DNA of 64,000 bases from Alphaproteobacteria bacterium (GCA_965228895.1 OZ245842.1:2839964-2903963); one strand, 5' to 3'. Counted from the stretch's first letter, positions 42,923 through 58,266 are shown. Made by a program: numbers and translations. The notes: generated by a model not told the origin, from the sequence alone.

Positions 42923-44062
42923 CTACCCGTCGGTTGTCTCGAACAGGGTGAGCACGCCGGTATAGGCATAGAGGCGGTCGAACGAGATCTCGCCGTTGCC
43001 GAAGAAACCAACCATCGGCACGTCGCCCAACACCTCGCGCACGATCGCCATCTCGCTCTGGGCGCCATCAAACATGTTGGGGCCGCGCGCCAGGCAGCTG
43101 AAGTAGAGACCTCCGGCCACGTTACCGGCGCGCTTGCGAACGTCGCCGACCATTCGCTTCAGATCGGCTTCCGCGGCCGCGCGGTCGCGGCGGCAGAACA
43201 TCAGGGCATCGCCCATGCCGACACGCTCGCCGATCACCACCGCGCCACTGTTGGGTTCGATGCCGACCAGATTGCGCACCAGATAATCACCGGTATCGGA
43301 TCCGGACACCGGCAGACCAACGTGAAGGGATCCCGACAATTGGCGCGGGTCCGAAATACCCTCAGTCGCCAGTTCCTCGACGAACACATCCATCGCCGGG
43401 CGGTCATTCAAACAATGAACGACGTTCTCATCGACCTTGGTCACCTGATGAATACCGCCCAGCGGCACGCAGCCCTGCGTTAAACCGGTGCTGACGCGCA
43501 CAGAGCTGTCGAAAAGAACACCAGAGATCTCTCGCTCGACCGGGCGCCCCGCCATCTGCATGGTTGCGCCGCGCGACGAACTTAAGCCACCGACCAGATA
43601 GCCGTCGGTATCGCGCGCCAGACCGGCGATCGCCTCGACCAGATTGGGCATACGCGGATCACCATGGACGACGGCGAAACTACCCTGCCCCATCGCGCCG
43701 CCGCGCCGGTCGTCGTAACTGCGGACCGCCTCCTCCGCGCTGGTGAAAAGGCTCAAGGCGTCTTCGGGAAACCTGCCGGTCATCGCCGCAACCGCCGGCC
43801 GGTCAAAGTACTCGCTGCCGGCTGCGCAGATTCCGATGCCGACCGTGCCGCACCAGCTCGTCACACCGGTCGCGGCGGCCAGGAACCCCGCGATTTCACC
43901 GAGGGCGTCGGCGAAATGATCGGTGACATAGACAAAGCCCAGCGTGTCGTCGTCGCGGTCGCCCAAAACCTCGGCAACCGATCGGGCGGCCTGCTGCCAT
44001 GTTTCCGCGCTGGCATGGGCAACGTGAAACTGGCCGGTCACAACGTCAGATGTTTCGTTCAT
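42923..44062 (-). CDS. FIST-domain sensory protein
   Basis: The product is 379 aa. The overall FIST_N/FIST_C pattern is present (…LGFVYVTDHFADALGEI…, …GFFGNGEI… near the C-terminus). This recognition is from memory. Confidence 0.55.
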   Translation of the reverse strand: MNETSDVVTGQFHVAHASAETWQQAARSVAEVLGDRDDDTLGFVYVTDHFADALGEIAGFLAAATGVTSWCGTVGIGICAAGSEYFDRPAVAAMTGRFPEDALSLFTSAEEAVRSYDDRRGGAMGQGSFAVVHGDPRMPNLVEAIAGLARDTDGYLVGGLSSSRGATMQMAGRPVEREISGVLFDSSVRVSTGLTQGCVPLGGIHQVTKVDENVVHCLNDRPAMDVFVEELATEGISDPRQLSGSLHVGLPVSGSDTGDYLVRNLVGIEPNSGAVVIGERVGMGDALMFCRRDRAAAEADLKRMVGDVRKRAGNVAGGLYFSCLARGPNMFDGAQSEMAIVREVLGDVPMVGFFGNGEISFDRLYAYTGVLTLFETTDG

Positions 44063-44182
44063 ATAACCAGAATAGGCTCGCCAACTGACGGGTCAACAGG
44101 ATCACGTCCTTCGCCTATAATGTGACCATGAGAGACCACATCACTTGCCGGCCGTGACCGCGCGATCAACGGCGGCATCACC

Positions 44183-44800
44183 GTGACAGCGAGATGCGGT
44201 TGGTTTCTGGGGTTCGCGTTGTCATGCCTGGTCATCGCACCGGCCACCGCCGAATCGATCACGGTCAAAGGACTGACCTTCACCGATGAGCTCGGCGGGT
44301 TTCGCCTGTTGGCGGCATGGGGCAGCGGTTCGCTCGAAGACCCGATCACGGTGGTCGAAGAAATCACCAGCACCAGGGGCGCCGTCTTGATGATCCGAGG
44401 CGTTGGCCCGCATACCGGCAACGCCATTCCGACCAACCATCCCGCCGGCTTCGCACTGCGCAAGATCGTCACCAACGCGACCAACCAGACCTGGACGTTC
44501 TTTGATATCGAGTTGCAGAAGTTGCTGGGTACACCAAGCGACATCTACGACGGGCTGTCGTTCGGCCAGGATGCGCAGGCCGGGCGGCCGTTTACCTCCA
44601 ATCGATTCGGCCAAAGCGTGTCGCAGGACGAGCCGCGCGATCACGTCACGTTTTTTGATGGCGTGGTCGAACCGGGCGAAACCGTCAGCATGGACTTCGT
44701 CATCACCGCAACCGGTTACGTCACAGAACTGATGCTGCTGCAAAAACCGAACCGCCCGGTCGCATCGATCGACGGCGGCGCCACGGACCACGGCGGATGA
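44183..44800 (+). CDS. Exported protein of unknown function, translationally coupled to the cyclase
   Basis: It has a GTG start and the signal peptide WFLGFALSCLVIAPATAES. The stop TGA overlaps the ATG of the next gene (ATGA at 44797-44800). Confidence 0.5.
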   Translation: MTARCGWFLGFALSCLVIAPATAESITVKGLTFTDELGGFRLLAAWGSGSLEDPITVVEEITSTRGAVLMIRGVGPHTGNAIPTNHPAGFALRKIVTNATNQTWTFFDIELQKLLGTPSDIYDGLSFGQDAQAGRPFTSNRFGQSVSQDEPRDHVTFFDGVVEPGETVSMDFVITATGYVTELMLLQKPNRPVASIDGGATDHGG

Positions 44801-46464
44801 TCGCGCGCATCAGACTGGGCTCCGGGCTGGTGCTTATGGTCTTTCTTGCCAGCCACCTGATCAACCACGCGCTGGGCATCCATTCTCTGGCCTGGATGGA
44901 GGCTGGCCGGCGTGTCTTCGATGGGGTTTGGCGCAGTACGCCGGGCACGGTCGTGCTGTGCGCGGCACTGGTCCTCCATCTGGGCCTGGTCTTCTGGGCG
45001 CTCTACCGGCGCAACAGCCTGGCCATGCCGCCACGCGAGTGGGCCCAGCTCTTGCTGGGGCTCACCATACCGCTGCTGGTCGCAGAACACGTGGCCGGCA
45101 CAAGGGGCGCCAACGAACTGTTCGGCGTCAACGACACTTATCCCTACGTTATCTATGCGCTATGGGTGGACGCGCCGTGGAAAGGCGTTCTGCAGTCGGT
45201 CCTGATCATCACCGCCTGGCTGCACGGCTGCTTGGGGATACACTTCTGGCTGCGCCTGAAACCCTGGTATCGGCGCTGGCAATGGTGCGCCTTCAGCTTG
45301 GCAATCCTGGTCCCCATCCTTGCCCTTGGCGGTTTTGTCGGCGCCGGCATTGACGTCGCGCGCTTGGCCAGTGACCCCGACTGGCTGCCCGAGTTTCTCG
45401 CCTCGACCGGCGTCGGGCGCGTCTTCGAACAGCTCTCAGCCTTCATGGCCCAAGCGCAACTCTGGACGATCGCCGTGGTCGTGGCCTTGGTCGCCACCGT
45501 TCTGCTTCTCAGATGGCTTCGCATGGCATTTGCCGCCCGGCGAAAAGCCCCTCGCCTGACCTACCCCAACGGTCAGGTGGTCGAGATCGCGCCGGGCTCG
45601 ACCGTGCTGGAGACCAGCCGCGCCGCCGACATTCCCCACGCCTCGGTTTGCGGCGGGCGCGGCCGTTGCTCGACCTGCCGCGTCCGGCTGGGCCACGGTC
45701 GAGATGATCTGGAACCGCCCGACGCCGATGAGCGCAAGGTCTTGGAGCGCATCGGCGATCCACCCCATGTCCGCTTGGCGTGTCAGCTTCGCCCGACCGC
45801 GGACCTTGCAGTCACCCCCTTGCTGCCCGCGCACGCCGGCCCCGCCGACGCGGTCATGCGCCAACGACCCGCCGGCGCCGGACGGGAACAGGAGATCGCC
45901 GTATTGTTTGCCGACCTCCGGGGCTTCACCACGCTGTCGGAAGCCAACCTTCCCTATGACACCGTCTTTGTCCTGAACCGCTATTTCGAAGCCATGGGCC
46001 ATGCCATCGAGGGCGCCGGCGGGCAGATCGACAAGTTTATCGGTGACGGCGTCATGGCGCTGTTTGGCGTCGACGGCACGATCGATAATGGATGCCGCCA
46101 GGCACTCGACGCGACGGAGGCCATGAGCCACGCGCTTGCCGCGCTCAACCGTTCGCTCGCCAAGGAGATTGAACAGCCGCTTCGACTCGGCATCGGCCTG
46201 CATGTCGGGCCGGCGGTGATCGGCGAAATGGGGTACGGCGAAACCATGCACATGACGGCAATCGGCGACGTCGTGAACACGGCGAGCCGGCTGGAGGGTG
46301 CGACGAAAGATCTGCGCTGCGATCTCGTTGTCTCAGAGCGTGTCGTGGAGCTGGCCGGCGTGCCCGAGATGCCCGGGTTGCCTCACGATCTGACGGTTCG
46401 CGGCAAGCGGGAAACCCTTCGGGTACGCGCCATCAGCAACCTCGCCGGCACACCAAAGTTATAA
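44797..46464 (+). CDS. Membrane [2Fe-2S]-ferredoxin-domain adenylate/guanylate cyclase
   Basis: About 240 aa of TM helices with conserved histidines (SHLINHALGIH, AEHVAG, WLHGCLGIHFW) come first. A plant-type ferredoxin domain follows (CGGRGRCSTCRV...LACQ). The protein ends in a class III cyclase core (IAVLFADLRGFT, KFIGDGVMALFG). Confidence 0.8.
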   Translation: MIARIRLGSGLVLMVFLASHLINHALGIHSLAWMEAGRRVFDGVWRSTPGTVVLCAALVLHLGLVFWALYRRNSLAMPPREWAQLLLGLTIPLLVAEHVAGTRGANELFGVNDTYPYVIYALWVDAPWKGVLQSVLIITAWLHGCLGIHFWLRLKPWYRRWQWCAFSLAILVPILALGGFVGAGIDVARLASDPDWLPEFLASTGVGRVFEQLSAFMAQAQLWTIAVVVALVATVLLLRWLRMAFAARRKAPRLTYPNGQVVEIAPGSTVLETSRAADIPHASVCGGRGRCSTCRVRLGHGRDDLEPPDADERKVLERIGDPPHVRLACQLRPTADLAVTPLLPAHAGPADAVMRQRPAGAGREQEIAVLFADLRGFTTLSEANLPYDTVFVLNRYFEAMGHAIEGAGGQIDKFIGDGVMALFGVDGTIDNGCRQALDATEAMSHALAALNRSLAKEIEQPLRLGIGLHVGPAVIGEMGYGETMHMTAIGDVVNTASRLEGATKDLRCDLVVSERVVELAGVPEMPGLPHDLTVRGKRETLRVRAISNLAGTPKL

Positions 46465-46533: not shown

Positions 46534-47733
46534 GTGGGTTTAAGATCGGTGCAGAAACGATCCGGTATTTTGGTGTCCGTGGTCTTGGCCAGTGCGCTTG
46601 TGCTGTCGCCGGCCTATGCCGACTTCGAAGCCGGCATGCAGGCCTATGACGCCGGTGACTACGCGGCCGCCATCTCGGAATGGCAGCCGCTGGCCGAACA
46701 AGGCAATCTGGAAGCCCAATTCGGCATGGGCATCATCTATGAGAACGGCCGCGGCATTGGCCGTGATTATACCGAAGCAGCCAAGTGGTATGCCGCCGCA
46801 GCCGAGGGCGGCCATCCCGGCGCCCAGTTCAATCTTGGAAACATCTACCAACAGGGCCTGGGTGTACCCAAGGACCCCTCGCGGGCGGTCTACTGGTGGA
46901 CGTTGTCGGCGGCTCAGGGCTTGTCGGATGCCCAACTGAACCTGGGAATCGCCTATCACCGCGGCGACGGCGTCGCGCGTGACCAGGACTTGGCGTTCTC
47001 GTGGTTCGAGCGGGCGGCCGAAGCGGGCAACCCTATGGGCCAGTTCTCCGCCGGTTACGCCTATGAAACCGGCCTGGGGACCGAGGTCAATTTGAATGAA
47101 GCACGCCGCCTCTACGCGGCGGCTGCCGAAGCCGGTATCCAGCAGGCTGCAAATCGGCTGGCCGTTCTGGGTCCGCCCGATGACGTGGCCGCCACCGAAC
47201 TCGTCCCCGAACCGGTCATGGAGACCGAGCCCGTCGAGTCGATTGAGTCGGCCGAGGTGATTCTGGAAGACGCGCCAAGCGAGGACATCACGGAGACCGA
47301 GCCCGTCGAGACAGACGAGGTCGCGGAAACCGTGCCGGAGCCGACCGTTGGCGACAGCGGTACGGAGCCGACAACCGATAGTTCGGCGATCGACTACAGC
47401 GCGGTCGAAGCGACCGAGACGGTCGAAACTGTCGAAACAGCCGCTGTCGAGACCGAGACGACCGTTGCCCCCGCGCAAGGCGGCGGCCCCTATATCCAGA
47501 TCGCCGCATACCTGAGCGAAGACCGTGCCGAGGCCGCGTGGCAGGACATTACCGGGCGGTTTCCCGATCTGCTGGGCGGCCTGCCCCACCGTGTCTTGAT
47601 GGTCGATCTTGGTGGTGAATTGGGCACGGTCTATCGCCTGCAGGCCGGACCGATGCCGGCCCAGGCTGAAGCGCAGGCTATCTGTAACGAGCTAAAGGCC
47701 AAGAACGCCGATTGTTTCCTGGTTGGACCTTAG
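46534..47733 (+). CDS. Sel1-repeat protein with an acidic linker and a C-terminal SPOR (peptidoglycan-binding) domain
   Basis: A signal-like N-terminus is followed by repeated Sel1 units (AQFGMGIIYENGRGIGRDYTEAAKWY...), a Glu/Thr/Pro-rich linker and a SPOR-like end (YIQIAAYLSEDRAEAAW...YRLQAGPM). Confidence 0.7.
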   Translation: MGLRSVQKRSGILVSVVLASALVLSPAYADFEAGMQAYDAGDYAAAISEWQPLAEQGNLEAQFGMGIIYENGRGIGRDYTEAAKWYAAAAEGGHPGAQFNLGNIYQQGLGVPKDPSRAVYWWTLSAAQGLSDAQLNLGIAYHRGDGVARDQDLAFSWFERAAEAGNPMGQFSAGYAYETGLGTEVNLNEARRLYAAAAEAGIQQAANRLAVLGPPDDVAATELVPEPVMETEPVESIESAEVILEDAPSEDITETEPVETDEVAETVPEPTVGDSGTEPTTDSSAIDYSAVEATETVETVETAAVETETTVAPAQGGGPYIQIAAYLSEDRAEAAWQDITGRFPDLLGGLPHRVLMVDLGGELGTVYRLQAGPMPAQAEAQAICNELKAKNADCFLVGP

Positions 47734-47736
47734 ATC

Positions 47737-48129
47737 CTACTGAGCGTCCGGGCTGTTGGCTTTCAGATAGGCAATGACGTTGGCGATGTCGTCCTCCTTG
47801 GTCAGGCGGAACGTCATTTTGACGCCAGAGATGTATTTGGTCGGCCCGGCCAACCATTCGGTCAGTGTTGCTTCGTCCCAAACGATGCCGGATTCGGGCA
47901 GCTTGCCGGAATCGAGCGATCCCGCTTCGTTTGAACCCGCCGCGCTGCCGTAGACCCCAAACAAATTTGGACCTTGCTTCGGTGCGCCGCCTTGTTCGAT
48001 CGTGTGGCAGACCTTGCAGCGGTTGAACACCTTCTCACCTTGGGCAACATCGCCTTCGGCCCAAGCCGATTGCGCGGTGAGCCCAAGAGCGAGCGTGAGC
48101 AAAGATCCGAAAGCGGCAACACGTTTCAT
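47737..48129 (-). CDS. Periplasmic class I cytochrome c (c2-like)
   Basis: There is a signal peptide. CKVCHTIE is the haem-binding motif. The distal methionine lies in GVKMTFRLTKEDDIANVIAYL. Confidence 0.85.
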   Translation of the reverse strand: MKRVAAFGSLLTLALGLTAQSAWAEGDVAQGEKVFNRCKVCHTIEQGGAPKQGPNLFGVYGSAAGSNEAGSLDSGKLPESGIVWDEATLTEWLAGPTKYISGVKMTFRLTKEDDIANVIAYLKANSPDAQ

Positions 48130-48227
48130 CGAAACACTCCGTTAAGAAAGAACTGAAAAACCGTGCAGGTCAATACGATCGTCAGGCGGGATGTTACAAA
48201 TCAAATAACACTGTTCTTACGATCCTC

Positions 48228-48716
48228 TTACGATCCCGTGCACTCACCGCAGTTTTCGACCGGCAGATCCCTGGCCAACCATCCCGGACCGTCGCCGCTG
48301 CCGACCATGCCCTCGCCAATATCGTAGATCTGTTCAAACCCCTCGCCCTCCAGAAGGACATGCGCGATCGCGGAACGAACGCCGGCGGCGCAAATCAACG
48401 CGATCGGGCGTGACCTGTCGCCACCGGCAAGAGCCGTGACCTCTTCGACAAAATCCAGGTTCGGCAGACCATAGGCCAGAAACAGACTTGCCCTGCCAGC
48501 GCCCTCAGGAATACCGGTTTCGCGCCACTCCGATTCCGTCCGGATGTCGACAATCAGAAGCTCGCCCTGGCCAGACTGCTGCCATGCGTCCGGTGCCGAG
48601 AGCAGACCGTCGCCCTCCGCATAAGCCGGCGCAATAACAAAGAACACGAGCGCAAAAGCAAGGGATGGGCCGCGAACGGCCCATCCCCAGATCATCAAGC
48701 AGACGTTGGTTGTCAT
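48228..48716 (-). CDS. Exported single-domain rhodanese (sulfurtransferase)
   Basis: The start is the ATG at 48716. The signal peptide is ...LAFALVFFVIAPAYAEG. The active-site loop is CAAGVRS. LIVDIRTESEW is typical of the rhodanese fold. Confidence 0.75.
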   Translation of the reverse strand: MTTNVCLMIWGWAVRGPSLAFALVFFVIAPAYAEGDGLLSAPDAWQQSGQGELLIVDIRTESEWRETGIPEGAGRASLFLAYGLPNLDFVEEVTALAGGDRSRPIALICAAGVRSAIAHVLLEGEGFEQIYDIGEGMVGSGDGPGWLARDLPVENCGECTGS

Positions 48717-48729
48717 CGGTTGATGATGA

Positions 48730-51282
48730 TCAGTTTCGATACTCCTCGGGGATGAAGAGCAGCGAATCCACCTCGGCGCCAATATGACAGTCGATGCAGA
48801 ACGCCACCTTTTCTGTACCCTCCCCGTTTGTGGTGCCGACAGTCTTGCCGTTGGGCATGATCAGGGTGTAGCGCCAGTCATCGGAGTCGGCGTTAAATCC
48901 CGAAGCCATCTTCTCCATGACAAACAACGGTCCGGGCACCACCGTGCCCTTTGCCGTCACCGCGAAGCTGTCCTTGGCCAGCACGGCACCAGCAGGCATG
49001 GTGCCGCCGTTTTCGTACTCGCCATATGACTGCGCCGCTGCGGCGTCAGCGTAATTGTTCACGAAGCGTCCGCCGTGGGTGTACGACTTGTAGGGCACGG
49101 AGTTGTACTTTTCCCATCCGCTGTAGGCGGACGAGATGTCAAGACCGGTGCTGGACATCAAATTGGCCTTGGCATAGCCGACTTCCATCTGCGCCTTGAT
49201 GCAGTCGTAAGCCGCCACAGCCTCGTCATTGGTCAGTTCGATGTCGACGCCGGCACCGCAGCCGCCGCACGCACCACAGCCGCCACACGCACCGCAACCG
49301 CCGCACGCACCACAGGCTCCACAAGCACCACAAGCACCACAGCCGCCACACGCACCGCAGCCACCGCAAGCGCCACAGGCTCCGCAAGCGCCGCAGGCCG
49401 AGCAGGCATCGCAGGCACTGCAGCCCGCCGCCATGCCGGCCGCAGGAACCGCCTCCGGATTCTCCTGCAAGCTCGCGCCGCAACCGCCGCACGCGCCACA
49501 GGCACCGCACGCGCCGCAGCCGCCACAGGCTCCGCAATCGGCCCAAGCGATGCTCGGCACCACGCAACCGGTGTCGGCTTCTGCCGCACAACCGCCGCAT
49601 GCACCACAACCACCGCACGCGCCACACGCTCCGCAAGCACCACACGCGCCGCAGCCACCACAGGCTCCGCATGCACCGCATGCACCGCATGCACCGCATG
49701 CACCGCATGCGTCACAAGCAGAACATGCGCCGCAAGCAGAACATGCGCCGCAGCCTGCCGCCATGCCGCTTGGCAACGCTTCCGGGTTCTCATGGCTGGC
49801 GCCATCTTCGTCGTCGGACCCGTCGGATTTCTCACCGCGCGGTTCCCACCAGTCCTCGCCGTCGCGTTTGGCACGCACTGCAAACTTCATGGCGCCATTC
49901 GAGTCTTCCAGGCTGGCGCCGCAACATCCACCACACGCACCGCAGGCATCACAGGCCGCGCAACACGCCGAGCACGCATCACACGCGCCGCAAGCCGAGC
50001 ACGCATCGCAGGCACCGCAGCCCGCCGCCATGCCAGTCGGCAGGGCGTCCGGATTGTCGAGGCTGGCGCCGCAGCATCCACCACACGCACCGCAGGCATC
50101 ACAAGCCGCACAACATGCCGAACACGCATCACACGCGCCGCAAGCCGAGCACGCATCGCACGCACCGCAGCCCGCCGCCATGCCGGTCGGCAGGGCGTCC
50201 GGATTGTCGAGGCTGGCGCCGCAGCATCCACCGCACGCACCGCAGGCATCACAGGCCGCACAACATGCCGAACACGCATCGCACGCGCCGCAAGCCGAGC
50301 ACGCATCGCACGCACCGCAGCCCGCCGCCATGCCGGTCGGCAGGGCGTCCGGATTGTCGAGGCTTGCGCCGCAACATCCACCGCACGCTCCGCAGGCATC
50401 ACAAGCCGCGCAACACGCCGAGCACGCATCACACGCGCCGCAAGCCGAGCACGCATCGCAGGCACCGCAGCCCGCCGCCATGCCAGTCGGCAGGGCGTCC
50501 GGATTGTCGAGGCTGGCGCCGCAACATCCACCGCAAGCTCCGCAGGCATCACAGGCCGCGCAACACGCCGAGCACGCATCACACGCGCCGCAAGCCGAGC
50601 ACGCATCGCACGCACCGCAGCCAGCCGCCATGCCGGTCGGCAGGGCGTCCGGATTGTCGAGGCTGGCGCCGCAACATCCACCGCAAGCTCCGCAGGCATC
50701 ACAAGCCGCGCAACATGCCGAACACGCATCACACGCGCCGCAAGCCGAGCACGCATCGCACGCACCGCAGCCCGCCGCCATGCCAGTCGGCAGGGCGTCC
50801 GGATTGTCGAGGCTTGCGCCGCAACATCCACCACACGCACCGCAGGCATCACAAGCCGCGCAACATGCCGAACACGCATCACACGCGCCGCAAGCCGAGC
50901 ACGCATCGCACGCACCGCAGCCCGCCGCCATGCCAGTCGGCAGGGCGTCCGGATTGTCGAGGCTTGCGCCGCAACATCCACCACACGCACCGCAGGCATC
51001 ACAGGCCGCGCAACACGCCGAACACGCATCGCACGCGCCGCAAGCCGAGCACGCATCGCACGCACCGCAGCCCGCCGCCATGCCGGTCAAAGCACGATCG
51101 GCGATGGACAAGGAGGCGGGCATGGGAACGGCGGCCGGATTTTCGACCGCGCGTGGATTGACAAGGCGACAGCTGGCGCGACCACAAGGCGCTGCCGCAA
51201 CGCTGACGGCAAGCGCAACGCCGGCGCCCATAAAGGCCGGCAGCATCGTGCTCGACAGCAGATTACGTTTGAGTTCACTCAT
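48730..51282 (-). CDS. Sec-signal hyper-cysteine (Cys-x-x)n tandem-repeat protein with a C-terminal cytochrome P460-family haem-c domain
   Basis: GGGAGG lies upstream of the ATG at 51282. The N-terminal signal is LPAFMGAGVALAVSVAAA. Eight 50-aa units (MAAGCGACDACSACGACDACSACCAACDACGACGGCCGASLDNPDALPTG) are followed by two degenerate Cys modules. The C-terminal ~190 aa has DDWRYTLI and FCIDCHIGAEVDSLLFIPEEY, resembling P460 (NWAFYIF...CAACHKENAKTDMVFTQFYP, from memory). Confidence 0.75.
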   Translation of the reverse strand: MSELKRNLLSSTMLPAFMGAGVALAVSVAAAPCGRASCRLVNPRAVENPAAVPMPASLSIADRALTGMAAGCGACDACSACGACDACSACCAACDACGACGGCCGASLDNPDALPTGMAAGCGACDACSACGACDACSACCAACDACGACGGCCGASLDNPDALPTGMAAGCGACDACSACGACDACSACCAACDACGACGGCCGASLDNPDALPTGMAAGCGACDACSACGACDACSACCAACDACGACGGCCGASLDNPDALPTGMAAGCGACDACSACGACDACSACCAACDACGACGGCCGASLDNPDALPTGMAAGCGACDACSACGACDACSACCAACDACGACGGCCGASLDNPDALPTGMAAGCGACDACSACGACDACSACCAACDACGACGGCCGASLDNPDALPTGMAAGCGACDACSACGACDACSACCAACDACGACGGCCGASLEDSNGAMKFAVRAKRDGEDWWEPRGEKSDGSDDEDGASHENPEALPSGMAAGCGACSACGACSACDACGACGACGACGACGACGGCGACGACGACGACGGCGACGGCAAEADTGCVVPSIAWADCGACGGCGACGACGACGGCGASLQENPEAVPAAGMAAGCSACDACSACGACGACGACGGCGACGGCGACGACGACGACGGCGACGGCGACGGCGAGVDIELTNDEAVAAYDCIKAQMEVGYAKANLMSSTGLDISSAYSGWEKYNSVPYKSYTHGGRFVNNYADAAAAQSYGEYENGGTMPAGAVLAKDSFAVTAKGTVVPGPLFVMEKMASGFNADSDDWRYTLIMPNGKTVGTTNGEGTEKVAFCIDCHIGAEVDSLLFIPEEYRN
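49911..51081. repeat. Tandem direct repeat, 150-bp unit x ~7.8, inside the Cys-rich gene
   Basis: The anchor gcccgccgccatgcc recurs at about 50020, 50170, 50320, 50470, 50620, 50770, 50920 and 51070. In the one adjacent pair I compared, the units are about 95% identical at the DNA level. Confidence 0.95.
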
Positions 51283-51457
51283 AACCGAAGAAACCTCCCA
51301 AATATCCCAGTTGCCCTGCCCTCACGACAACGTGTCGACCGCTGCCTTTGAAAGTCGGCGAAACTATCGCCCCATAGCTCGAGGGTGCAGGGCGATGATA
51401 TCGACTGACTTCGACATGGAACCAGTGATTTCCCTTTCACGTTAGCGTGAGAATGTA

Positions 51458-52336
51458 GTGGTGAAAAAGCCAGGGCTAGTGCGGCTTTCCGGCCTAACAC
51501 TTGTAATCTTTGCAGGCATAGTGATGACGCCGGCATGGGCCCAGGACCCACCCCTGCCCGGCATGGACGTCATCGAGATTCCGGCCGGATCGTTTCTTGC
51601 CGGATCAACATCGGAAGAACGCGAGCGCGCCTATCAGCTCGACGAAGCTGCTTACGGCCACAGCCGCACCCGCGAACGCGGCTGGTACGAAGACGATGAC
51701 GACCTGCACGAGGTCTATCTCGACACCTATTGGATCACCAAGAATCTGATCACCAACGCCCAGTATCAGGTCTTTGTCGAGGCTACGGGCCATCGAGTCC
51801 CGGACATCGACAAGGAGACCTGGGACGGCTTCGGCCTGATCCACCCTTACGAAAGAACGCGTCAATTCGCCTGGACAGATGGTGTGCCGCCGACCGGCCG
51901 CGAGGATCATCCGGTGGTCATGGTCAACCATGCCGATGCAACAGCGTTCGCCGTATGGCTATCTGAGGAAACCGGTCAGACCTGGCGGTTGCCGAGCGAA
52001 ATGGAGTGGCAAAAGGCGGCGCGCGGCACGGACGGGCGGATGTTCCCGTGGGGCGACGAATGGGATCCCAACCTGGCGAACACGCACGATGCCGGCCCGT
52101 TTCGAACCGTGCCGGTGGGCTCTTTTCCCGAAGCCGCAAGTCCTTATGGCATGTTGGATGCCGCGGGCCAGGTGTTTGAATGGACGACGACCTTGAAACG
52201 CCCCGGCCGTTACTGGGTCAAGGGCGGGTCCTGGGATGACCGCGGGTGCGGCGTGTGCCGGCCAGCCGACCGGCACAGCCGCCCCGAGGACATTCAGCAC
52301 ATACTTGTCGGATTCAGGCTCGTGCTGGAACCCTGA
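51458..52336 (+). CDS. Exported formylglycine-generating-enzyme (FGE/SUMF1) family protein
   Basis: The signal peptide is LTLVIFAGIVMTPAWAQ. The FGE-sulfatase domain pattern is HPVVMVNHADATAFAVWLSE..WRLPSEMEWQKAARG...VKGGSWDD. The start is a GTG. Confidence 0.75.
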   Translation: MVKKPGLVRLSGLTLVIFAGIVMTPAWAQDPPLPGMDVIEIPAGSFLAGSTSEERERAYQLDEAAYGHSRTRERGWYEDDDDLHEVYLDTYWITKNLITNAQYQVFVEATGHRVPDIDKETWDGFGLIHPYERTRQFAWTDGVPPTGREDHPVVMVNHADATAFAVWLSEETGQTWRLPSEMEWQKAARGTDGRMFPWGDEWDPNLANTHDAGPFRTVPVGSFPEAASPYGMLDAAGQVFEWTTTLKRPGRYWVKGGSWDDRGCGVCRPADRHSRPEDIQHILVGFRLVLEP

Positions 52337-52647
52337 GCCAGGCGCATGGGACCGGCCGGCGGCGCCTCAAGCGCCAGAAGGTTCCGCTCCTCGGCCGCCT
52401 CATAGGACGTTGTCCCTCGATCGGCGTGACCCGGCAGACCGGCCAGATGCGCTTCCGGCTGCCAACCACCGCGCGGCACTTCAACGCCGTGCAAGGCGAT
52501 GTCCGCTTTGTGTGAGTTCTGATCAACACAGGCTATGGCCTGACTGGCCACCGACGTCGAGTCGCGCCATCCCCAAACAGCGATGATGGCGAAGGCCAGC
52601 GCGGCTACGACGAGCCAAGCGCCTAAGACTTCACGTATCGACTGCAT
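52294..52647 (-). CDS. Possible small membrane-anchored protein
   Basis: From the ATG at 52647 the product starts MQSIREVLGAWLVVAALAFAIIAVWGW..., which gives one TM helix. The 3' end overlaps the FGE gene by about 43 nt (convergent). There are no recognisable motifs, so it may be spurious. Confidence 0.25.
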   Translation of the reverse strand: MQSIREVLGAWLVVAALAFAIIAVWGWRDSTSVASQAIACVDQNSHKADIALHGVEVPRGGWQPEAHLAGLPGHADRGTTSYEAAEERNLLALEAPPAGPMRLAQGSSTSLNPTSMC

Positions 52648-52836
52648 ACCCTTGATCTCCAATGTAAAAGCGGCCTTACCTGGCCGCGTGGGCCTCACCT
52701 GGCCTCGTGCGTTGCCACCATATGGTCATGAGGAATACGCAAGAAAAGGCACAAACGATCATCGCCCAGTCACATATGCTTCACGTAATCGATCACAATC
52801 TTGAAAGGTGGTGGCGCTGACGCCATCCTCACGCCC

Positions 52837-53592
52837 ATGGCAATGACAGAAACCGCGACACCGGGCCTGGACGTCGATCTACCGCGACGGGTCCAGCTCG
52901 ATGATTTGGACCGCAGCGACCTCGAAGAGATGCTCGAGGCCGGGCGTGATGTGCTCGAATGCTACCGGGTGCTGCGCAAAAACAACGACAACGTGGTCGG
53001 CGAACTGCTGCGCGACGTCGAAACCTTCTACCAGTGGCAGCACTATCCAAAGGGTGACATCTTCGACCGGGAGACCGGCAGCCAGTTCTATTATCACGCC
53101 CACCCTAAGGCCAGCCGGCCGGGTGAGCATGGCCATTTCCACACCTTCATGCGCGCCAAAGGGATGCCCAAGGGCACCGAACCCGTCCCTTACGACGGCG
53201 ACAAGGTGTGGCCCTTGGGTCCCGATGCGCTGAGCCATCTGATCGCGATATCGATGGATCCAAAGGGGTATCCCATCGGCTTGTTCACGGTGAACCGGTG
53301 GGTCACCGGGGACACGTGGTATGCCGCCGAGGATGTGGTGAAGATGGTCGACCTGTTCGACATCGATCACGCCCGCCCCTCCTGGCCGGTCAACCGCTGG
53401 GTCACGGCGATGATGCGCCTGTTCCGTCCGCTGGTGCATGACCTCGTAAGGGAACGCGATCTGGTCATGGCGGCATGGCGCGACAGTCATCCGGGAACCG
53501 ATGTCTATGCCGACCACGGTCTTGAGATCACGTCGGCCAGCACGATTTCCGTCGAGAAGCAGATCACGCGCATCCGCAGTCTTCTCGCCTAG
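52837..53592 (+). CDS. Hypothetical protein with a His-rich HAHP...GEHGHFH motif
   Basis: The coding look is good, with no signal peptide. The motif YYHAHPKASRPGEHGHFHTF suggests a metal site (cupin-like?). I do not recognise the family. The start is the ATG at 52837. Confidence 0.5.
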   Translation: MAMTETATPGLDVDLPRRVQLDDLDRSDLEEMLEAGRDVLECYRVLRKNNDNVVGELLRDVETFYQWQHYPKGDIFDRETGSQFYYHAHPKASRPGEHGHFHTFMRAKGMPKGTEPVPYDGDKVWPLGPDALSHLIAISMDPKGYPIGLFTVNRWVTGDTWYAAEDVVKMVDLFDIDHARPSWPVNRWVTAMMRLFRPLVHDLVRERDLVMAAWRDSHPGTDVYADHGLEITSASTISVEKQITRIRSLLA

Positions 53593-54053: not shown

Positions 54054-54572
54054 TCATTCGGCAAAGCCTATCCATGGCGAATCGGGCTTACGGCTGAATG
54101 CCGCCGAGCCATCCGCGACCTGCGCCTGAACGGTCTTCCAGTTATCGGCGCCGCGCGTGATGCGCGAACGCATGTCGGAGGTCCATTGGCCTTTAACCTG
54201 TTCATCCCAATTCAGATAGAGCTTGTCGTCGACAACGCTCCACGCCGTCGCGGGATCGACTTCGGCGGCATACGCGCCAACCGACAGCGCATAGGCACAC
54301 CAACCGCCGAACTGCGGCGCGTAGGCTTCGGGATCGCCGGCAAAGAGGTCACGGTTTTCGGCGCTGGCGAAATGCCACGTCGCGCCGTTCCAAGCATGGC
54401 TCAGTGTGGGATCGCCTTGCACGGCTTCACCTTGGGTGAAGTAAGCGACCGTGTCATAGCCACCAATCGCGACGCCATCGGGCGTCACATTCACTGAGCT
54501 GTCGGCATGCGCCCAATGGGTGAAGAGCGCCGACGCCAGCATCACACACAGCACGAAAGCGATTCGTCGCAT
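54054..54572 (-). CDS. YHS domain-containing exported protein (Cys form of the YHS (seleno)protein family)
   Basis: From the ATG at 54572 the signal peptide is MRRIAFVLCVMLASALFTHWAHA. GYDTVAYF, WHFASAENRDLF and FGGWCAYAL follow. Confidence 0.6.
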   Translation of the reverse strand: MRRIAFVLCVMLASALFTHWAHADSSVNVTPDGVAIGGYDTVAYFTQGEAVQGDPTLSHAWNGATWHFASAENRDLFAGDPEAYAPQFGGWCAYALSVGAYAAEVDPATAWSVVDDKLYLNWDEQVKGQWTSDMRSRITRGADNWKTVQAQVADGSAAFSRKPDSPWIGFAE

Positions 54573-54719
54573 AGCCCGATCCTCTCCGGTCGTTTCGCGC
54601 AACATCATCGGCCAAAGTGACCTCGACGCGCCAATCGCCGTTGGCCACCATGTCGATAGCCTGGTGCTATGGTCCGACCATCGCATCACCGGCGCCAACC
54701 CGCTGCAGGAATCCTGCCG

Positions 54720-55403
54720 ATGACGAATACTCTCTTAGGGGTTCTCGCCTTCACGCTGATCCCCTGTATCGGCATTCTTGCCGGCAGCGCAGCCGCCCTG
54801 GCACGTGCGCCAGGGCCGAGACTGATCAGCGCGTTTCAGCACTTTGCCGCCGGTGTGGTGTTTGCCGCGGTGGCGGTGGAACTACTGCCGCAACTCCACA
54901 CTCTGGATTCACCAGTCGCCATGATCGTCGGCTTTGTGCTGGGGATCGGGGCGATGCTGATGTTCAAGGCCCTGTTCGAAGATGCCGGTATCGTTGTTCC
55001 CATGACCGTGGACCTTTTCGTCGACGGCTTACTGATCGCCGTCGGTTTTGCTGCCGGCGTGATGGGCGGGACGGTTCTGTTGATTGGCCTGACGCTGGAA
55101 ACGCTGTCGCTGGGACTGTCGACGGCCCCCGCGCTGGTAAAGCGCGGCATGACACGGTCGCGGGCTGTTGTGATGTTGGTCGCGATCAGCCTGGCCATCC
55201 TTGTCGGCGCGGCGGCCGGTCATCTCATTGCCGGCATGTCGGGCGCCTTTCTGGCCGGTATTCTTGGTTTCGGTGTCGCGGCGCTGCTCTATCTGGTGAC
55301 CGAAGAATTGTTGAGCGAAGCGCACGAGGTGCCGGATACGCCGATCGTCACCGCGACCTTCTTCGCCGGTTTCCTGGTGCCTATCGTGATAGCGGCCGCC
55401 TGA
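54720..55403 (+). CDS. ZIP-family-like divalent metal transporter
   Basis: The product is 227 aa with about 8 TM helices. Conserved acidic and histidine positions lie in the helices (FQHFAAGVVF, DLFVDGLLIAVGF, LVTEELLSEAHE). The family assignment is from memory only. Confidence 0.45.
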   Translation: MTNTLLGVLAFTLIPCIGILAGSAAALARAPGPRLISAFQHFAAGVVFAAVAVELLPQLHTLDSPVAMIVGFVLGIGAMLMFKALFEDAGIVVPMTVDLFVDGLLIAVGFAAGVMGGTVLLIGLTLETLSLGLSTAPALVKRGMTRSRAVVMLVAISLAILVGAAAGHLIAGMSGAFLAGILGFGVAALLYLVTEELLSEAHEVPDTPIVTATFFAGFLVPIVIAAA

Positions 55404-55532: not shown

Positions 55533-56786
55533 CTAGCGATCGACCACCACCTGACCCTGACGCACGGCTCGGTAGAGTGGGTTACGTCCGACCCAATAGG
55601 CGAGATCGCCCGGGCGCTCGATGTTCCAGATCGCCAGATCGGCCGCCTTGCCCACCTCCAGTGTGCCATGCGTCGCGCCCATGCCGAGCGCAAGGGCGGC
55701 ATTGCGCGTCACGCCAGCCAGTGCCTCCTGGGGCGTCAACCGGAACAAGGTGGCCGCCATGCTGAGCATCAACAACAGCGACAACACCGGTGAGCTGCCC
55801 GGGTTGGCATCGGTCGCGACGGCAATCGGCACGCCCCGTTCGCGCAACAGGTCGACGGGCGGGAGCTTGGTTTCGCGCAGGACATAGAACGCACCGGGCA
55901 GCAGCACCGCCACCGTACCGGCCTTTGCCATCGCCTCGACACCGTCGGCTGAGAGATACTCCAGATGATCGGCCGAGAGCGCACCGTAGTCCGCGGCAAG
56001 CGCGGCGCCTCCCATGTCGGAAAGCTGTTCGGCGTGGATCTTGGTCGGCAGTCCAAGGTCGCGCGCCTTCATAAGGACACGTTCGGTGTTGGCCAGGTCA
56101 AAGCCGATGGTTTCACAGAAGACGTCGACGGCATCGGCCAATCCCGCGCGTGCCGCCGCCGGCATCATCTCGTCGACGACAAGGTCGATATAGGCATCTT
56201 CGCGGTCCTTAAAGTCTTCCGGCAAAGCATGCGCACCAAGGAAAGTTGTCTTGATCGTCACCGGCCGCATCTCCGCAAGCCGACGTGCCACCGATAACAT
56301 CTTCAGTTCGCTCTCGGTCTCCAGACCGTAACCAGATTTGATCTCAATCGTCGTCACGCCTTCCGCGCGCAACACATCGAGACGCGGTAACGCCAGGTCG
56401 ACAAGTTGATCGTCACTGGCGCTGCGTGTCGCACGCACGGTCGAGAGGATGCCGCCGCCTGCTTGTTGCAGCTCGGCATAGCTGGCGCCGTTGAGCCGCA
56501 TCTCGAACTCCTGCGAACGGTCACCGCCGAATACGAGATGGGTATGACAGTCGATCAACCCGGGCGTCACCCAGCGTCCGTCGCCATACCATACGTCGTG
56601 CGCCAACGACGACGGCTGGCCAGGCAAGTCCGAAGCCGGACCGGCAAAGACGATCTCGCCGTCGGCAATAGCCAAGGCGCCGTGGTCGATGGCGCCATAC
56701 CCGTCCTCCCCTGGCAGCATGGTCGCCAGGCGCACGTCCAGCCACAGCGTATCCCACATGGTTGCCACGCTTTCCTTTTCGATCAT
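55533..56786 (-). CDS. hutI: Imidazolonepropionase
   Basis: [12 protein letters not shown] is present, along with the downstream HutI pattern ([34 protein letters not shown]). The start is either 56786 or the ATG at 56759. Confidence 0.9.
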
Positions 56787-56892
56787 GAAGTGGCACGCTT
56801 ATGCGGCTTTGCGCCGCTGTGCAAGGTGTCGACTGACAAGATGGTGGTGGTTCTGCGCTGCGTGGCGAGTGTCGGCGCGAGATTGGGGAGCC

Positions 56893-58266
56893 ATGGATTT
56901 TTTTGCCAAGTCCGCCCTTTTATCCAGGGGTTGGGCGCAGGACGTGTTGTTGCGAACCGACGACGACGGTCTGCTGAGCGAGGTTCGCAGCAACGCTCGA
57001 CCGACACGCTCGTCCCTGCGTTTGGCCGGCCCGGTTATGCCCGGCATGCCAAACCTCCACAGTCACGCGTTTCAGCGCGCCATGGCCGGCCTTGCCGAAA
57101 GCGCCGGTAAGGAGCCCGACAGTTTCTGGACATGGCGTGAGGTCATGTACCGGTTCGTGAGTCGGCTTGACCCCGAGCAACTGGGTGCCATCGCCGCGCA
57201 GCTCTATCTGGAAATGCTGAAGGCCGGCTATACGTCGGTCGCTGAGTTTCATTACTTGCACCACCAGCCGGGTGGTCGCCCGTATGACGACTTGGCGGAG
57301 ATGGCGAACCGCATTGTGCGTGCCGCCCAGCAGACCGGCATCGGTCTGACCTTGCTGCCGGTGCTCTACGCCTATGGCGGGTTCGGCGGCAAACAGCCGG
57401 CGCGCGGCCAGGCGCGGTTTATCAACGGCGCCGACCGGTTCTTGAGACTGGTGCAGGAGTTGAAGGCGCGTCACGACAACAAACTCAACATGCGGATCGG
57501 CATCGCGCCGCATTCGCTGCGCGCCGTCACCAAGGGACTTCTTTCGGAAACACTGACCGGCCTGAACCGGATGGACGACACCGCGCCGGTGCACATTCAT
57601 ATCGCCGAACAAACGCGCGAAGTCGAAGACTGCCAAGAGTGGTCGGGCATGCGACCTGTGACGTGGCTCTATAACCACTTCAACGTCGGGCCGCGCTGGT
57701 GCCTGGTGCATGCCACCCATATCAACCGGATGGAAGCCTGGATGGTCGCAAACAGCCAGGCGGTCGTCGGTTTGTGCCCGACAACGGAAGCCAACCTGGG
57801 CGACGGCATCTTTCCGCTTGGCCTATATCTGCGCGGCGAAGGTTCGTTCGGCATCGGGTCGGACAGTCACATCTCCGTCAGTCCGATCGAGGAACTGCGC
57901 TGGCTTGAATACGTGCAGCGGCTGCGTCGCGAGATTCGCAATGTCGCGGTCACCGACCGCCAGCGCCATGTCGGCATGCGGCTGTGGCACGATACCGTCG
58001 CCGGCGGCGCCCAAGCGCTTGGCCAGCCGGTTGGCGGGCTGAAGATCGGCAACCGCGCAGATTTTATTGTCGTCGATCCCAACCATCCGCTGCTGATTGG
58101 TCGCGAAGGTGCGACGTTGGTCGACTCGCTGGTTTTCTCCGGCAACCAGAATCCGATAACCGATGTTTTCGTCGGCGGCGAACAGGTGATCACCGACGGT
58201 TTCCACGAACGCGAAGAGTCGATCAACCGGCGGTTCCGCCGCGCCATCAACCAACTTCACGCCTAG
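56893..58266 (+). CDS. hutF: Formimidoylglutamate deiminase
   Basis: The product starts MDFFAKSALLSRGWAQDV. PGMPNLHSHAFQRAMAG and VHIHIAEQTREVEDC are present. It is divergent from hutI. Confidence 0.85.
   Translation: MDFFAKSALLSRGWAQDVLLRTDDDGLLSEVRSNARPTRSSLRLAGPVMPGMPNLHSHAFQRAMAGLAESAGKEPDSFWTWREVMYRFVSRLDPEQLGAIAAQLYLEMLKAGYTSVAEFHYLHHQPGGRPYDDLAEMANRIVRAAQQTGIGLTLLPVLYAYGGFGGKQPARGQARFINGADRFLRLVQELKARHDNKLNMRIGIAPHSLRAVTKGLLSETLTGLNRMDDTAPVHIHIAEQTREVEDCQEWSGMRPVTWLYNHFNVGPRWCLVHATHINRMEAWMVANSQAVVGLCPTTEANLGDGIFPLGLYLRGEGSFGIGSDSHISVSPIEELRWLEYVQRLRREIRNVAVTDRQRHVGMRLWHDTVAGGAQALGQPVGGLKIGNRADFIVVDPNHPLLIGREGATLVDSLVFSGNQNPITDVFVGGEQVITDGFHEREESINRRFRRAINQLHA

Follow-up and report, generated by a model that had tools for sequence, protein, structure and literature searches.

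An exported cysteine-repeat haem protein of marine Alphaproteobacteria, its recurrent DUF6969 and FGE-like neighbours, and a possible role in periplasmic sulfur handling

What does a bacterium do with an exported protein of 850 amino acids (aa), 155 of them cysteines (Cys), and do the genes beside it act together with it? The question is raised by a locus in a 64,000-nucleotide (nt) stretch of DNA from Alphaproteobacteria bacterium (GCA_965228895.1 OZ245842.1:2839964-2903963), hereafter the window, in which positions are counted from the first letter. An earlier note on this DNA had read four genes for exported proteins as possibly one functional module: a Cys-repeat/P460 haem protein (48730..51282, minus strand), a single-domain rhodanese (48228..48716, minus strand), a cytochrome c (47737..48129, minus strand) and a divergent FGE-fold protein of 292 aa (51458..52336, plus strand). 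All four genes were recovered where the note had placed them and were confirmed by Pfam; the 13 nt between the stop of the Cys-repeat gene and the rhodanese start (48717-48729) and the divergent spacer of 175 bp (51283-51457) were exact. The N-termini of all four proteins were likewise signal-peptide-like, with one or two basic residues followed by a hydrophobic stretch, and AxA-type sites followed this stretch in three of the four (cytochrome c, rhodanese and FGE-like protein), as judged heuristically from Kyte-Doolittle hydrophobic windows and AxA-type sites. As regards family, architecture and partners, the Cys-repeat protein is very probably a hyper-expanded member of a widespread, unnamed family of exported Cys-repeat haem proteins.

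The protein is composed of a signal peptide or signal anchor (aa 1-31; 51190..51282, minus strand; best 12-aa hydrophobic window 2.17 on the Kyte-Doolittle scale), a poly-cysteine arm (aa 67-676; 49255..51084, minus strand) and a C-terminal haem domain. The arm consists of eight 50-aa units (GMAAGCGACDACSACGACDACSACCAACDACGACGGCCGASLDNPDALPT; seven identical) followed by two looser CGAC/CGGC blocks, and an ENPxA(L/V)P motif precedes each arm block. It is acidic (49 D, 10 E, 3 K and 3 R), and the whole protein contains 123 overlapping CxxC motifs, a single CxxCH (CIDCH, aa 829) and nine GGCG motifs, all of them internal. Tandem Repeats Finder reported a period of 150, 7.9 copies and 96% matches at 49910-51088. 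The 50-aa peptide is the same in seven of the tandem 150-nt units, whose DNA varies at 13 nt sites, all of which are third-position and synonymous. Since 24% of the possible single changes are synonymous, the chance of observing 13 out of 13 is 0.24^13, or ~1e-8, indicating that the repeat peptide is under strong purifying selection and that the repeats are neither non-coding nor an assembly artefact.

The reading frame needed the same attention. The open reading frame (ORF) runs uninterrupted from a GGGAGG Shine-Dalgarno sequence upstream of the ATG to the P460 domain, and its N-terminus, KRNLLSSTMLPAFMGAGVA, is the conserved N-terminus of homologues with the same architecture (e.g. P0088 and the locus L078; L numbers denote the loci compared in this study). 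This continuous ORF with its ribosome-binding site, the family-typical N-terminus and the synonymous-only variation of the repeats favour the long minus-strand frame. A public assembly that is 99.3% identical (ENA ERZ26167852; L081 7771-9948, 10001-10459) is annotated instead with a 152-aa P460 gene and, antisense to the repeats, an ORF of 725 aa, and homologues in databases are often truncated to ~150 aa, starting at an internal Met. The opposite strand of the window gene also holds three long open ORFs (520-758 aa), a by-product of the repeat composition, and the strand skew over 48000-52000 (GC −0.16 and −0.12; AT +0.16 and +0.27) is explained by the TGC/GCN-rich coding repeats. The arm matched no family model in Pfam or NCBIfam. 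When a 153-aa repeat-arm query was searched against 5.8 billion clustered proteins, 116 word-sharing candidates were returned, none of them at E≤0.001; this outcome fits with gene callers missing such arms or with composition filters removing them.

Relatives were instead collected with the C-terminal 173 aa (P460 domain) as the query, which matched 316 protein clusters and more than 538 loci in one-genome-per-species contigs. Nearly every carrier is a marine alphaproteobacterium (Kiloniellales, Pelagibius, Rhodospirillales, Sneathiella and Aestuariispira), and the culturable strains Pelagibius litoralis DSM 21314 and Aestuariispira insulae CECT 8488 are among them (L058, L016). After re-extension of the ORFs in 80 loci, a common architecture emerged: the signal peptide bears LLS[ST]T..P, an ENPAA motif often follows, and a Cys-repeat arm leads to the haem domain. 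The arms of the family hold 12 to 162 Cys, usually in CNPCNPCAA(K) repeats, as against C[GDS]AC in the window, whose repeats have lost Pro completely. Its nearest relatives mix CNPC with CGAC/CDAC (L002: 745 aa, 162 Cys; L003: 616 aa, 104 Cys), and arm length shifts fast among close relatives, with proteins of 850, 745, 616 and 466 aa.

The haem c domain of predicted P460/c'-beta fold (aa 677-850; 48733..49254, minus strand) bears its CIDCH haem motif near the C-terminus (aa 829-833; 48784-48798, minus strand). Its match to PF16694 (Cytochrome_P460) lies just above the threshold (1.3e-6, 29.3 bits vs a cutoff of 27, aa 735-839), and the homologues found by the domain search carry the precomputed assignment PF16694. 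A single-sequence search of the domain against PDB sequences gave no match, and a family profile was required, which matched PDB 7s5o, the cytochrome c'-beta-Met of N. europaea, at E=7.6e-4. An AlphaFold2 model of the domain (pLDDT 89.4) was compared with known structures by Foldseek, where the top eight matches were all cytochrome c'-beta or P460 (probability 1.0, TM 0.45-0.63), led by M. capsulatus cytochrome c'-beta, 7s5o and N. europaea P460. Four domain residues, K93, C152, C155 and H156, were invariant in 20 sequences. The invariant Lys770 (VLAKDSF; 48973-48975, minus strand) stands, by indirect alignment, at the position of the P460 cross-link lysine: it aligns with the Met of 7s5o (IVIMEIY), which in turn aligns with Lys106 of 6amg (VIVKELA), the P460 of Nitrosomonas sp. 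AL212, which we take to be the haem cross-linking residue. By this transitive mapping, the family appears to keep the residue that separates P460 from cytochrome c'-beta.

Which of the neighbours travel with this gene was evaluated by tblastn with the window proteins against 80 genome loci. For the partner counts, the 46 loci whose flanks extend 5 kb or more upstream and 3 kb or more downstream were used, and these counts are raw, without phylogenetic correction. The earlier note had named conservation of its gene set in relatives as the test by which the module could be refuted; such conservation was found for the FGE-like gene (19/46 loci, 51-67% identity) and for cytochrome c (18/46, in two arrangements, downstream or ~1.7 kb upstream), not for the rhodanese (6/46), and all four genes occurred together in 5/46. 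The idea of one module was partly borne out by the recurrent FGE-like partner and by a real exported P460 protein, while its most faithful partner, a DUF6969 gene (21/46), was absent from the set that the note had drawn. A Sel1-repeat protein was a neighbour in 14/46, and the partners ranked in the same order when all ORFs of the neighbourhood were clustered de novo. Several gene orders were seen, including DUF6969-FGE divergent from P460, FGE-P460-DUF6969, P460-cytochrome c-DUF6969, and rhodanese plus cytochrome c moved upstream (L032, L039). That the linkage is kept across these orders argues against mere inherited synteny. From these comparisons and the reciprocal test below, the core comprises the Cys-repeat haem protein and DUF6969, with or without the FGE-like protein, and cytochrome c and rhodanese are accessories at the level of clades.

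The note had further offered YHS and ZIP-like genes 2-4 kb away as support for a metal role. Both are present in the window (exported YHS protein, 54054..54572, minus strand; ZIP-like gene, 54669..55403, plus strand), but they are not conserved neighbours: neither was found in any of the 80 genome loci, and a single YHS (L155) was found among 80 metagenome loci. They were rejected as members of the module. The YHS protein matches NF041384, 'YHS domain-containing (seleno)protein', at 1e-42 and 145 bits vs a cutoff of 70; the copy in L155 is 34% identical and lies 1.3 kb from the module there.

The DUF6969 protein of the window (52837..53592, plus strand; 251 aa from the ATG at 52837, the ORF opening at 52801) matches PF22308 at 1.2e-84 and 283 bits vs a cutoff of 27, over positions 2-201 of 201. 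It has no signal peptide and, given this, is probably cytoplasmic. An invariant cluster, H81/H99/H101/E109/H110/H112/H114 (YYHAH...GEHGHFHTF), is placed on two adjacent strands. No solved relative was found for the fold and no enzymatic fold could be assigned, and NCBIfam has no model for DUF6969, the repeat arm or the small repeat peptides described below.

A reciprocal test was then made from the side of this protein. A DUF6969 search gave 5435 protein clusters, from which 80 metagenome loci were fetched, 31 of them with adequate flanks. An exported Cys-repeat ORF lay within 5 kb in 28 of the 31 loci, with a CxxCH in 26 of those 28; in L082-L084, which have no called gene beside DUF6969, an uncalled repeat-peptide ORF was present. 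The repeat proteins beside DUF6969 take three forms: peptides of 90-140 aa with a signal peptide and NPCAAK/CNPC repeats only, proteins of 230-450 aa with repeats on both sides of a mono-haem domain, and the P460 type. The mono-haem domain of the second form passes the SoxA/TsdA Pfam threshold (33 bits vs 27) and also that of CCP/MauG. Because P460 and SoxA/peroxidase-like haem domains fill the same operon slot, the repeat arm is the constant part of these proteins. The FGE-like gene was found in 11/31 DUF6969 loci and went with the repeat type (8/12 loci with CxPC-type repeats vs 1/16 with NPCAA-type; Fisher p=0.001). Other recurrent members were an exported DUF302 protein (24 loci), an exported 160-aa protein without assignment (24 loci) and a YeeE/YedE sulphur-transport permease (16 loci), and the order haem-repeat protein, DUF6969, DUF302, YeeE was also seen with P460-type proteins (L054, L060, L072 and L077). 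A Pfam census of 150 further DUF6969 neighbours gave no dominant copper or sulfur family beyond those just listed.

Two arrangements in these loci deserve description in their own right. In L085 (1998-8342; JGI 3300023283 Ga0255745_1000058), six genes in the same direction encode a 92-aa peptide of pure NPCNPC repeats, a mono-haem cytochrome flanked by repeats, an FGE-like protein whose N-terminal extension bears CGSCH, DUF6969 (4-nt overlap), a 160-aa exported cupredoxin-like protein and a second FGE fusion of 828 aa. A bufferin-type cluster (DUF2282 precursor, DUF692/MNIO-like and DUF2063-like) lies a few kb from a DUF6969/repeat-cytochrome/DUF302/YeeE operon in L122 (10884-13018), L155 and L160.

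The FGE-like protein matches FGE-sulfatase PF03781 at 1.1e-41 over positions 4-254 of 255, and its nearest solved structures are ToxD (7spq, 1.8e-27) and CalU17, then OvsA, FGE and PvdO. It reached no NCBIfam equivalog cutoff, scoring 47-61 bits vs 360-500 with the EgtB/OvoA/SenA/PvdO models. A C-terminal motif, KGGSWDDRGCGVCRPADR, is kept in at least 80% of 27 FGE-like orthologues. A CGVC pair is conserved in the C-terminal segment equivalent to that of the copper FGE, and HMMER alignments to solved FGEs end before it; its spacing is unlike the CxxxxC of the human enzyme, whose Cu-binding pair we take to be C336/C341. As the earlier note had observed, the Cys-repeat protein contains no CxPxR sulfatase motif; it contains no CxPx either, and no sulfatase was seen among the genes called within 10 kb. 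The FGE-like protein thus does not appear to be a sulfatase maturase in any sense that was tested. The repeats of relatives show CxPC without Arg, and some FGE partners bear an N-terminal CxxCH or multihaem extension. A role as maturase of the P460 cofactor was considered and rejected, since the FGE-like protein also accompanies repeat proteins with a non-P460 haem domain.

In the window's own clade, the rhodanese and the c2-type cytochrome sit downstream of the Cys-repeat gene. The exported rhodanese (162 aa, ATG at 48716; PF00581, 8e-8) has the active-site loop CAAGVRS that the earlier note had reported, and the pattern CxxGxR[ST] is kept in 11 of 11 full-length orthologues. Rhodanese genes were found in 11 of the 80 genome loci and in one metagenome locus (L111), mostly within this clade, and survive one rearrangement (L032, L039). 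The cytochrome c (130 aa, haem motif CKVCH; PF00034, 1e-9) scored 71 bits with the NCBIfam CycA c-550 model, below the cutoff of 240, and would best be described as class I, c2/c550-like, not as a named orthologue. Judged from the 13-nt gap, the rhodanese is probably co-transcribed with the Cys-repeat gene. A promoter scan gave no matches and terminator-like sites were at the level of shuffled sequence, so that the scan is uninformative on operon structure. Within the first 20 rhodanese codons, a strong stem-loop (48661-48688, minus strand; 12 pairs, 9 of them G-C) precedes a T-rich run; transcription might be partly terminated or attenuated here between the two genes, or the structure may just reflect the coding sequence of the signal peptide.

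What, then, might the module do? We tentatively favour, as a possibility still short of an even chance, that the exported poly-Cys arm with its fused haem is a periplasmic carrier of sulfane or thiosulfate sulfur. Under this proposal, the flexible polythiol arm would be the working part, a carrier or reservoir for sulfane or thiosulfate-derived sulfur held as persulfides, polysulfides or thiosulfonates, so that the protein would resemble a SoxY with many arms and a haem of its own. The open-site P460-type haem would catalyse the oxidative making or breaking of S-S bonds on the arm and exchange electrons with the respiratory chain by way of the neighbouring c2-type cytochrome. The rhodanese would move sulfane sulfur onto or off the arm, while DUF6969 before export and the FGE-like enzyme after export would prepare or recycle the arm cysteines. 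Sulfur as the cargo is favoured by the conserved rhodanese loop, by the SoxA/TsdA-type domain in the sister proteins and by the DUF302/YeeE pair, which also occurs in sox clusters; in Sulfitobacter, this pair lies inside them (PMC11034169).

Several observations weigh against this carrier role. No soxB, soxYZ, DUF302 or YeeE was found anywhere in the 64-kb window. The haem domain of the sister proteins fits di-haem peroxidase/MauG about as well as SoxA and so does not point to sulfur alone. Most relatives have no rhodanese in the neighbourhood, and about half of the P460-type loci have neither an FGE-like gene nor DUF6969 within 10 kb. The window arm contains none of the CxPC that the FGE-like gene tracks elsewhere. 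DUF6969 has no signal peptide, so a periplasmic sulfur role would require it to act before export or indirectly. Moreover, the co-occurrence counts carry no correction for phylogeny, and co-transcription in the window would follow solely from gaps of 13 nt and 98 nt.

The same arm could instead bind metal. That it is a periplasmic soft-metal buffer, most likely for Cu(I) and akin to bufferins and oxazolins, is our main alternative, which we regard as conceivable though doubtful. DUF6969 might then replace MNIO, and the FGE-like protein, having a copper-enzyme fold, might be a copper-dependent tailoring enzyme or a chaperone, suggestions to which we give a similarly low weight; with as much reserve, the haem domain, fed by the c2 cytochrome, might be a peroxidase or redox keeper protecting a Cu-thiolate arm. 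The acidic arm with its overlapping CxxC motifs suits such a function, and Cu(I) binding is known for Sec-exported proteins that repeat a Cys motif, with as many as 58 Cys (PMC12452194; PMC11626156); Buf1|Cytochrom_C|FGE-sulfatase fusions exist as well (PMC12452194). Genes similar to bufABC (DUF2282, DUF692 and DUF2063) adjoin the DUF6969 module in L122, L155 and L160, CcdA-like and thioredoxin-like genes occur in 4-5 loci, and the closest haem relatives include c'-beta-Met (7s5o), with the sister domain matching CCP/MauG. The c'-beta-Met protein is reportedly a peroxidase mimic. The YHS and ZIP genes near the locus would also suit a metal, but, as shown above, they are not conserved there, one YHS in L155 aside. 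The Pfam census of 150 neighbours placed no cop, cus, multicopper-oxidase or P-type ATPase family among the 25 most frequent of the 97 matched families, and no MNIO family was seen among the genes called within 10 kb of the window locus, on which no MNIO query was run. Most arms of the family are Lys-rich (NPCAAK) with a single Cys per repeat, and the rhodanese and DUF302/YeeE suit sulfur better than a metal.

Either cargo could be combined with a third proposal, in which the arm is mainly a substrate for post-translational modification: DUF6969, as a His-cluster metalloenzyme acting before Sec, and a periplasmic FGE-like oxidase would convert cysteines to formylglycine, heterocycles or cross-links. 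We consider this unlikely, and equally unlikely its corollary that the modified arm, not free thiols, is the functional entity. The coupling of DUF6969 to Cys-repeat ORFs in 28/31 loci speaks for it, including as it does stand-alone peptides of 90-140 aa and one 4-nt FGE/DUF6969 overlap; so do the ENPAA...L(R/L)LAA motif, which is conserved ahead of the repeats and recurs before each block in the window, and the correlation of the FGE-like gene with repeats of CxPC, a motif akin to the CxPxR site of genuine FGE. Bufferins provide a precedent for modification before Sec export (PMC11626156). On the other hand, no enzymatic fold can be assigned to DUF6969, the window arm is devoid of CxPx, many members are not peptides but large haem proteins, and the canonical Cys pair of FGE, as in the human sequence, is not clearly kept. 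A more specific version, in which DUF6969 is a multi-His metalloenzyme of new fold that acts on Asn-Pro-Cys/CxxC repeats before export, with a periplasmic FGE finishing the reaction in part of the family, would provide an MNIO-independent route to modified binders of thiophilic cargo (copper or sulfur), of which the 155-Cys P460 fusion of the window would be the most extreme product; we put it forward as speculation with rather little probability. That the locus represents a new post-translational modification system is, in the same measure, improbable.

The haem domain itself invites a role in detoxification of nitrogen oxides, since P460 oxidises NH2OH and cytochrome c'-beta binds NO. The P460-type haem would oxidise hydroxylamine or bind NO, the thiol arm would trap NO+ as S-nitrosothiols and cytochrome c would accept the electrons. 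The fold and the Lys at the cross-link position agree with this, but sister loci fill the same slot with an unrelated SoxA/peroxidase-like haem domain, which makes a pure nitrogen-oxide role unlikely, and no nitrogen-cycle genes were seen within 10 kb; we assign it a small probability. Smaller still, and close to negligible, is the probability that there is no module, i.e. that the adjacency is due to chance or ancestry and that the Cys-rich stretch is either a low-complexity expansion without function or a product of misassembly. The full four-gene set in only 5/46 relatives, the rapid change in repeat number (850, 745, 616 and 466 aa) and the breaking of short-read assemblies in the repeats (L001) could be taken to suggest it. 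They are opposed by the synonymous-only variation, by the presence of the repeats in the independent 99.3%-identical assembly and by the linkage of DUF6969 and the FGE-like gene across several gene orders and two haem-domain types.

Some further features of the region were recorded. Between the FGE-like gene and DUF6969, a small membrane-anchored ORF (52294..52698, minus strand) is conserved by tblastn at the same position in L165 (48% over 118 aa), L003 (41%) and L005 (32%), without a family match. It is a 117-aa gene call in the 99.3%-identical assembly and has one hydrophobic segment (3.1 Kyte-Doolittle); it lies in the ~465-nt gap between the two genes and is absent where the FGE and DUF6969 genes stand close. 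Judged from this conservation, it is probably a real gene specific to the clade of the window. An exported Sel1-repeat protein recurs in 27 of the 80 loci, for instance immediately downstream of the P460 gene in L014, L021, L022, L035 and L038; in Kiloniellaceae, it has 170 aa and lies on the same strand, 20-160 nt after the Cys-repeat gene. The window has a Sel1+SPOR protein of 399 aa (46534-47733, plus strand), convergent with the cytochrome c gene. Next to it lies a block (42923-46464) that is kept beside the module in the closest relatives (L001, L002 and L025). It encodes a protein with a FIST domain and, from two genes that share 4 nt, an exported DUF6423-like protein and a membrane adenylate/guanylate cyclase that carries a 2Fe-2S ferredoxin domain. 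On the other side, histidine-utilisation genes (imidazolonepropionase and formimidoylglutamate deiminase) lie at 55533-58266. Such genes are found within a few kb of DUF6969 in several unrelated loci (L004, L005 and L082-L084, with urocanase in L082-L084), without an established link to the module.

Should the proposal for the module hold, it would represent a large family of periplasmic polythiols, spread over marine Alphaproteobacteria (several hundred genomes at species level, or more) and thousands of DUF6969 clusters, which annotation largely misses, as the genes are cut short in gene calling or passed over for the antisense strand. DUF6969 gains its first testable context in the link to Cys-repeat exported proteins, and the P460 superfamily would gain a role outside the nitrogen cycle. 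The occurrence of the same poly-Cys arm on two unrelated open-site haem domains is a natural experiment, and the 155-Cys scaffold of selection-maintained repeats is of use to protein chemists. Either outcome, a many-armed sulfur carrier or an MNIO-free bufferin-like metal buffer, would add a component to marine sulfur or copper handling.

How does this locus compare with systems already known? Its recognisable domains all come from known superfamilies, and its logic, as far as genes can tell, resembles that of Sox carriers or bufferin-type metallophores without the defining enzymes of either. The searchable literature gave nothing on DUF6969 or CNPC/NPCNPC repeats, and nothing relevant on Cys-rich P460, P460 with formylglycine, FGE-sulfatase with Cys-rich periplasmic repeats, or periplasmic metallothionein. 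With described P460 and c'-beta proteins (PF16694), the haem domain shares a single CxxCH near the C-terminus, the predicted fold and the Lys at the cross-link position, at a sequence identity of just ~17-25%; it is fused to a 610-residue poly-cysteine arm, which described P460s do not have, and its neighbours are the genes for the FGE-like protein, DUF6969, rhodanese and cytochrome c instead of those of nitrification or methanotrophy. Metallothioneins and copper storage proteins (SmtA, PmtA and Csp1) are similar in their very high Cys content (18% here), CxxC and CC motifs and few aromatics in the arm. The window protein differs from them in having 850 aa, Sec export, tandem 50-aa units and a fused haem, and there is no sequence similarity, nor does any family model match the arm. 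Among FGE-fold proteins (FGE, PvdO, ToxD, CalU17 and EgtB/OvoA), the window protein is likewise FGE-sulfatase over its full length. The natural-product enzymes ToxD and CalU17 are its best solved relatives, and export is a feature it shares with PvdO, a periplasmic enzyme that tailors a metallophore derived from a peptide; by contrast, its conserved C-terminal pair, CxxC (CGVC), is spaced unlike the CxxxxC of copper FGE, and it has no DinB domain as in EgtB.

Bufferins and oxazolins resemble the module in combining a Sec-type signal peptide instead of a leader with repeated Cys motifs, in having a dedicated partner without signal peptide and in their links to cytochrome c and FGE-sulfatase domains (PMC12452194). 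Up to 58 Cys occur in oxazolin-type proteins, compared with 155 here, and the bufferin repeats (EGKCG and others) differ from the C[GDS]AC, CNPC and NPCAAK of the window family. The partner is DUF6969 rather than MNIO plus DUF2063: a DUF2282 bufferin-precursor query gave no tblastn match in the window, and the gene calls within 10 kb contain neither DUF692 nor DUF2063, the window itself not having been queried with MNIO or DUF2063. The haem domain of the window protein is moreover fused in cis. From the Sox system (SoxYZ arm, SoxXA haem enzyme and TsdA), it differs in an internal arm with 155 Cys, compared with the one C-terminal GGCGG of SoxY, in a haem of P460 fold rather than SoxA, and in that SoxB, SoxZ and SoxCD are missing from the window. 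The two have in common a flexible arm with carrier Cys in a Gly/Ala context and, by analogy of function for the window, a haem enzyme that makes S-S bonds with an electron exit to a small cytochrome c. In the sister loci, this likeness extends to a domain at the SoxA/TsdA threshold and to the DUF302 and YeeE partners, to which the window adds a periplasmic rhodanese.

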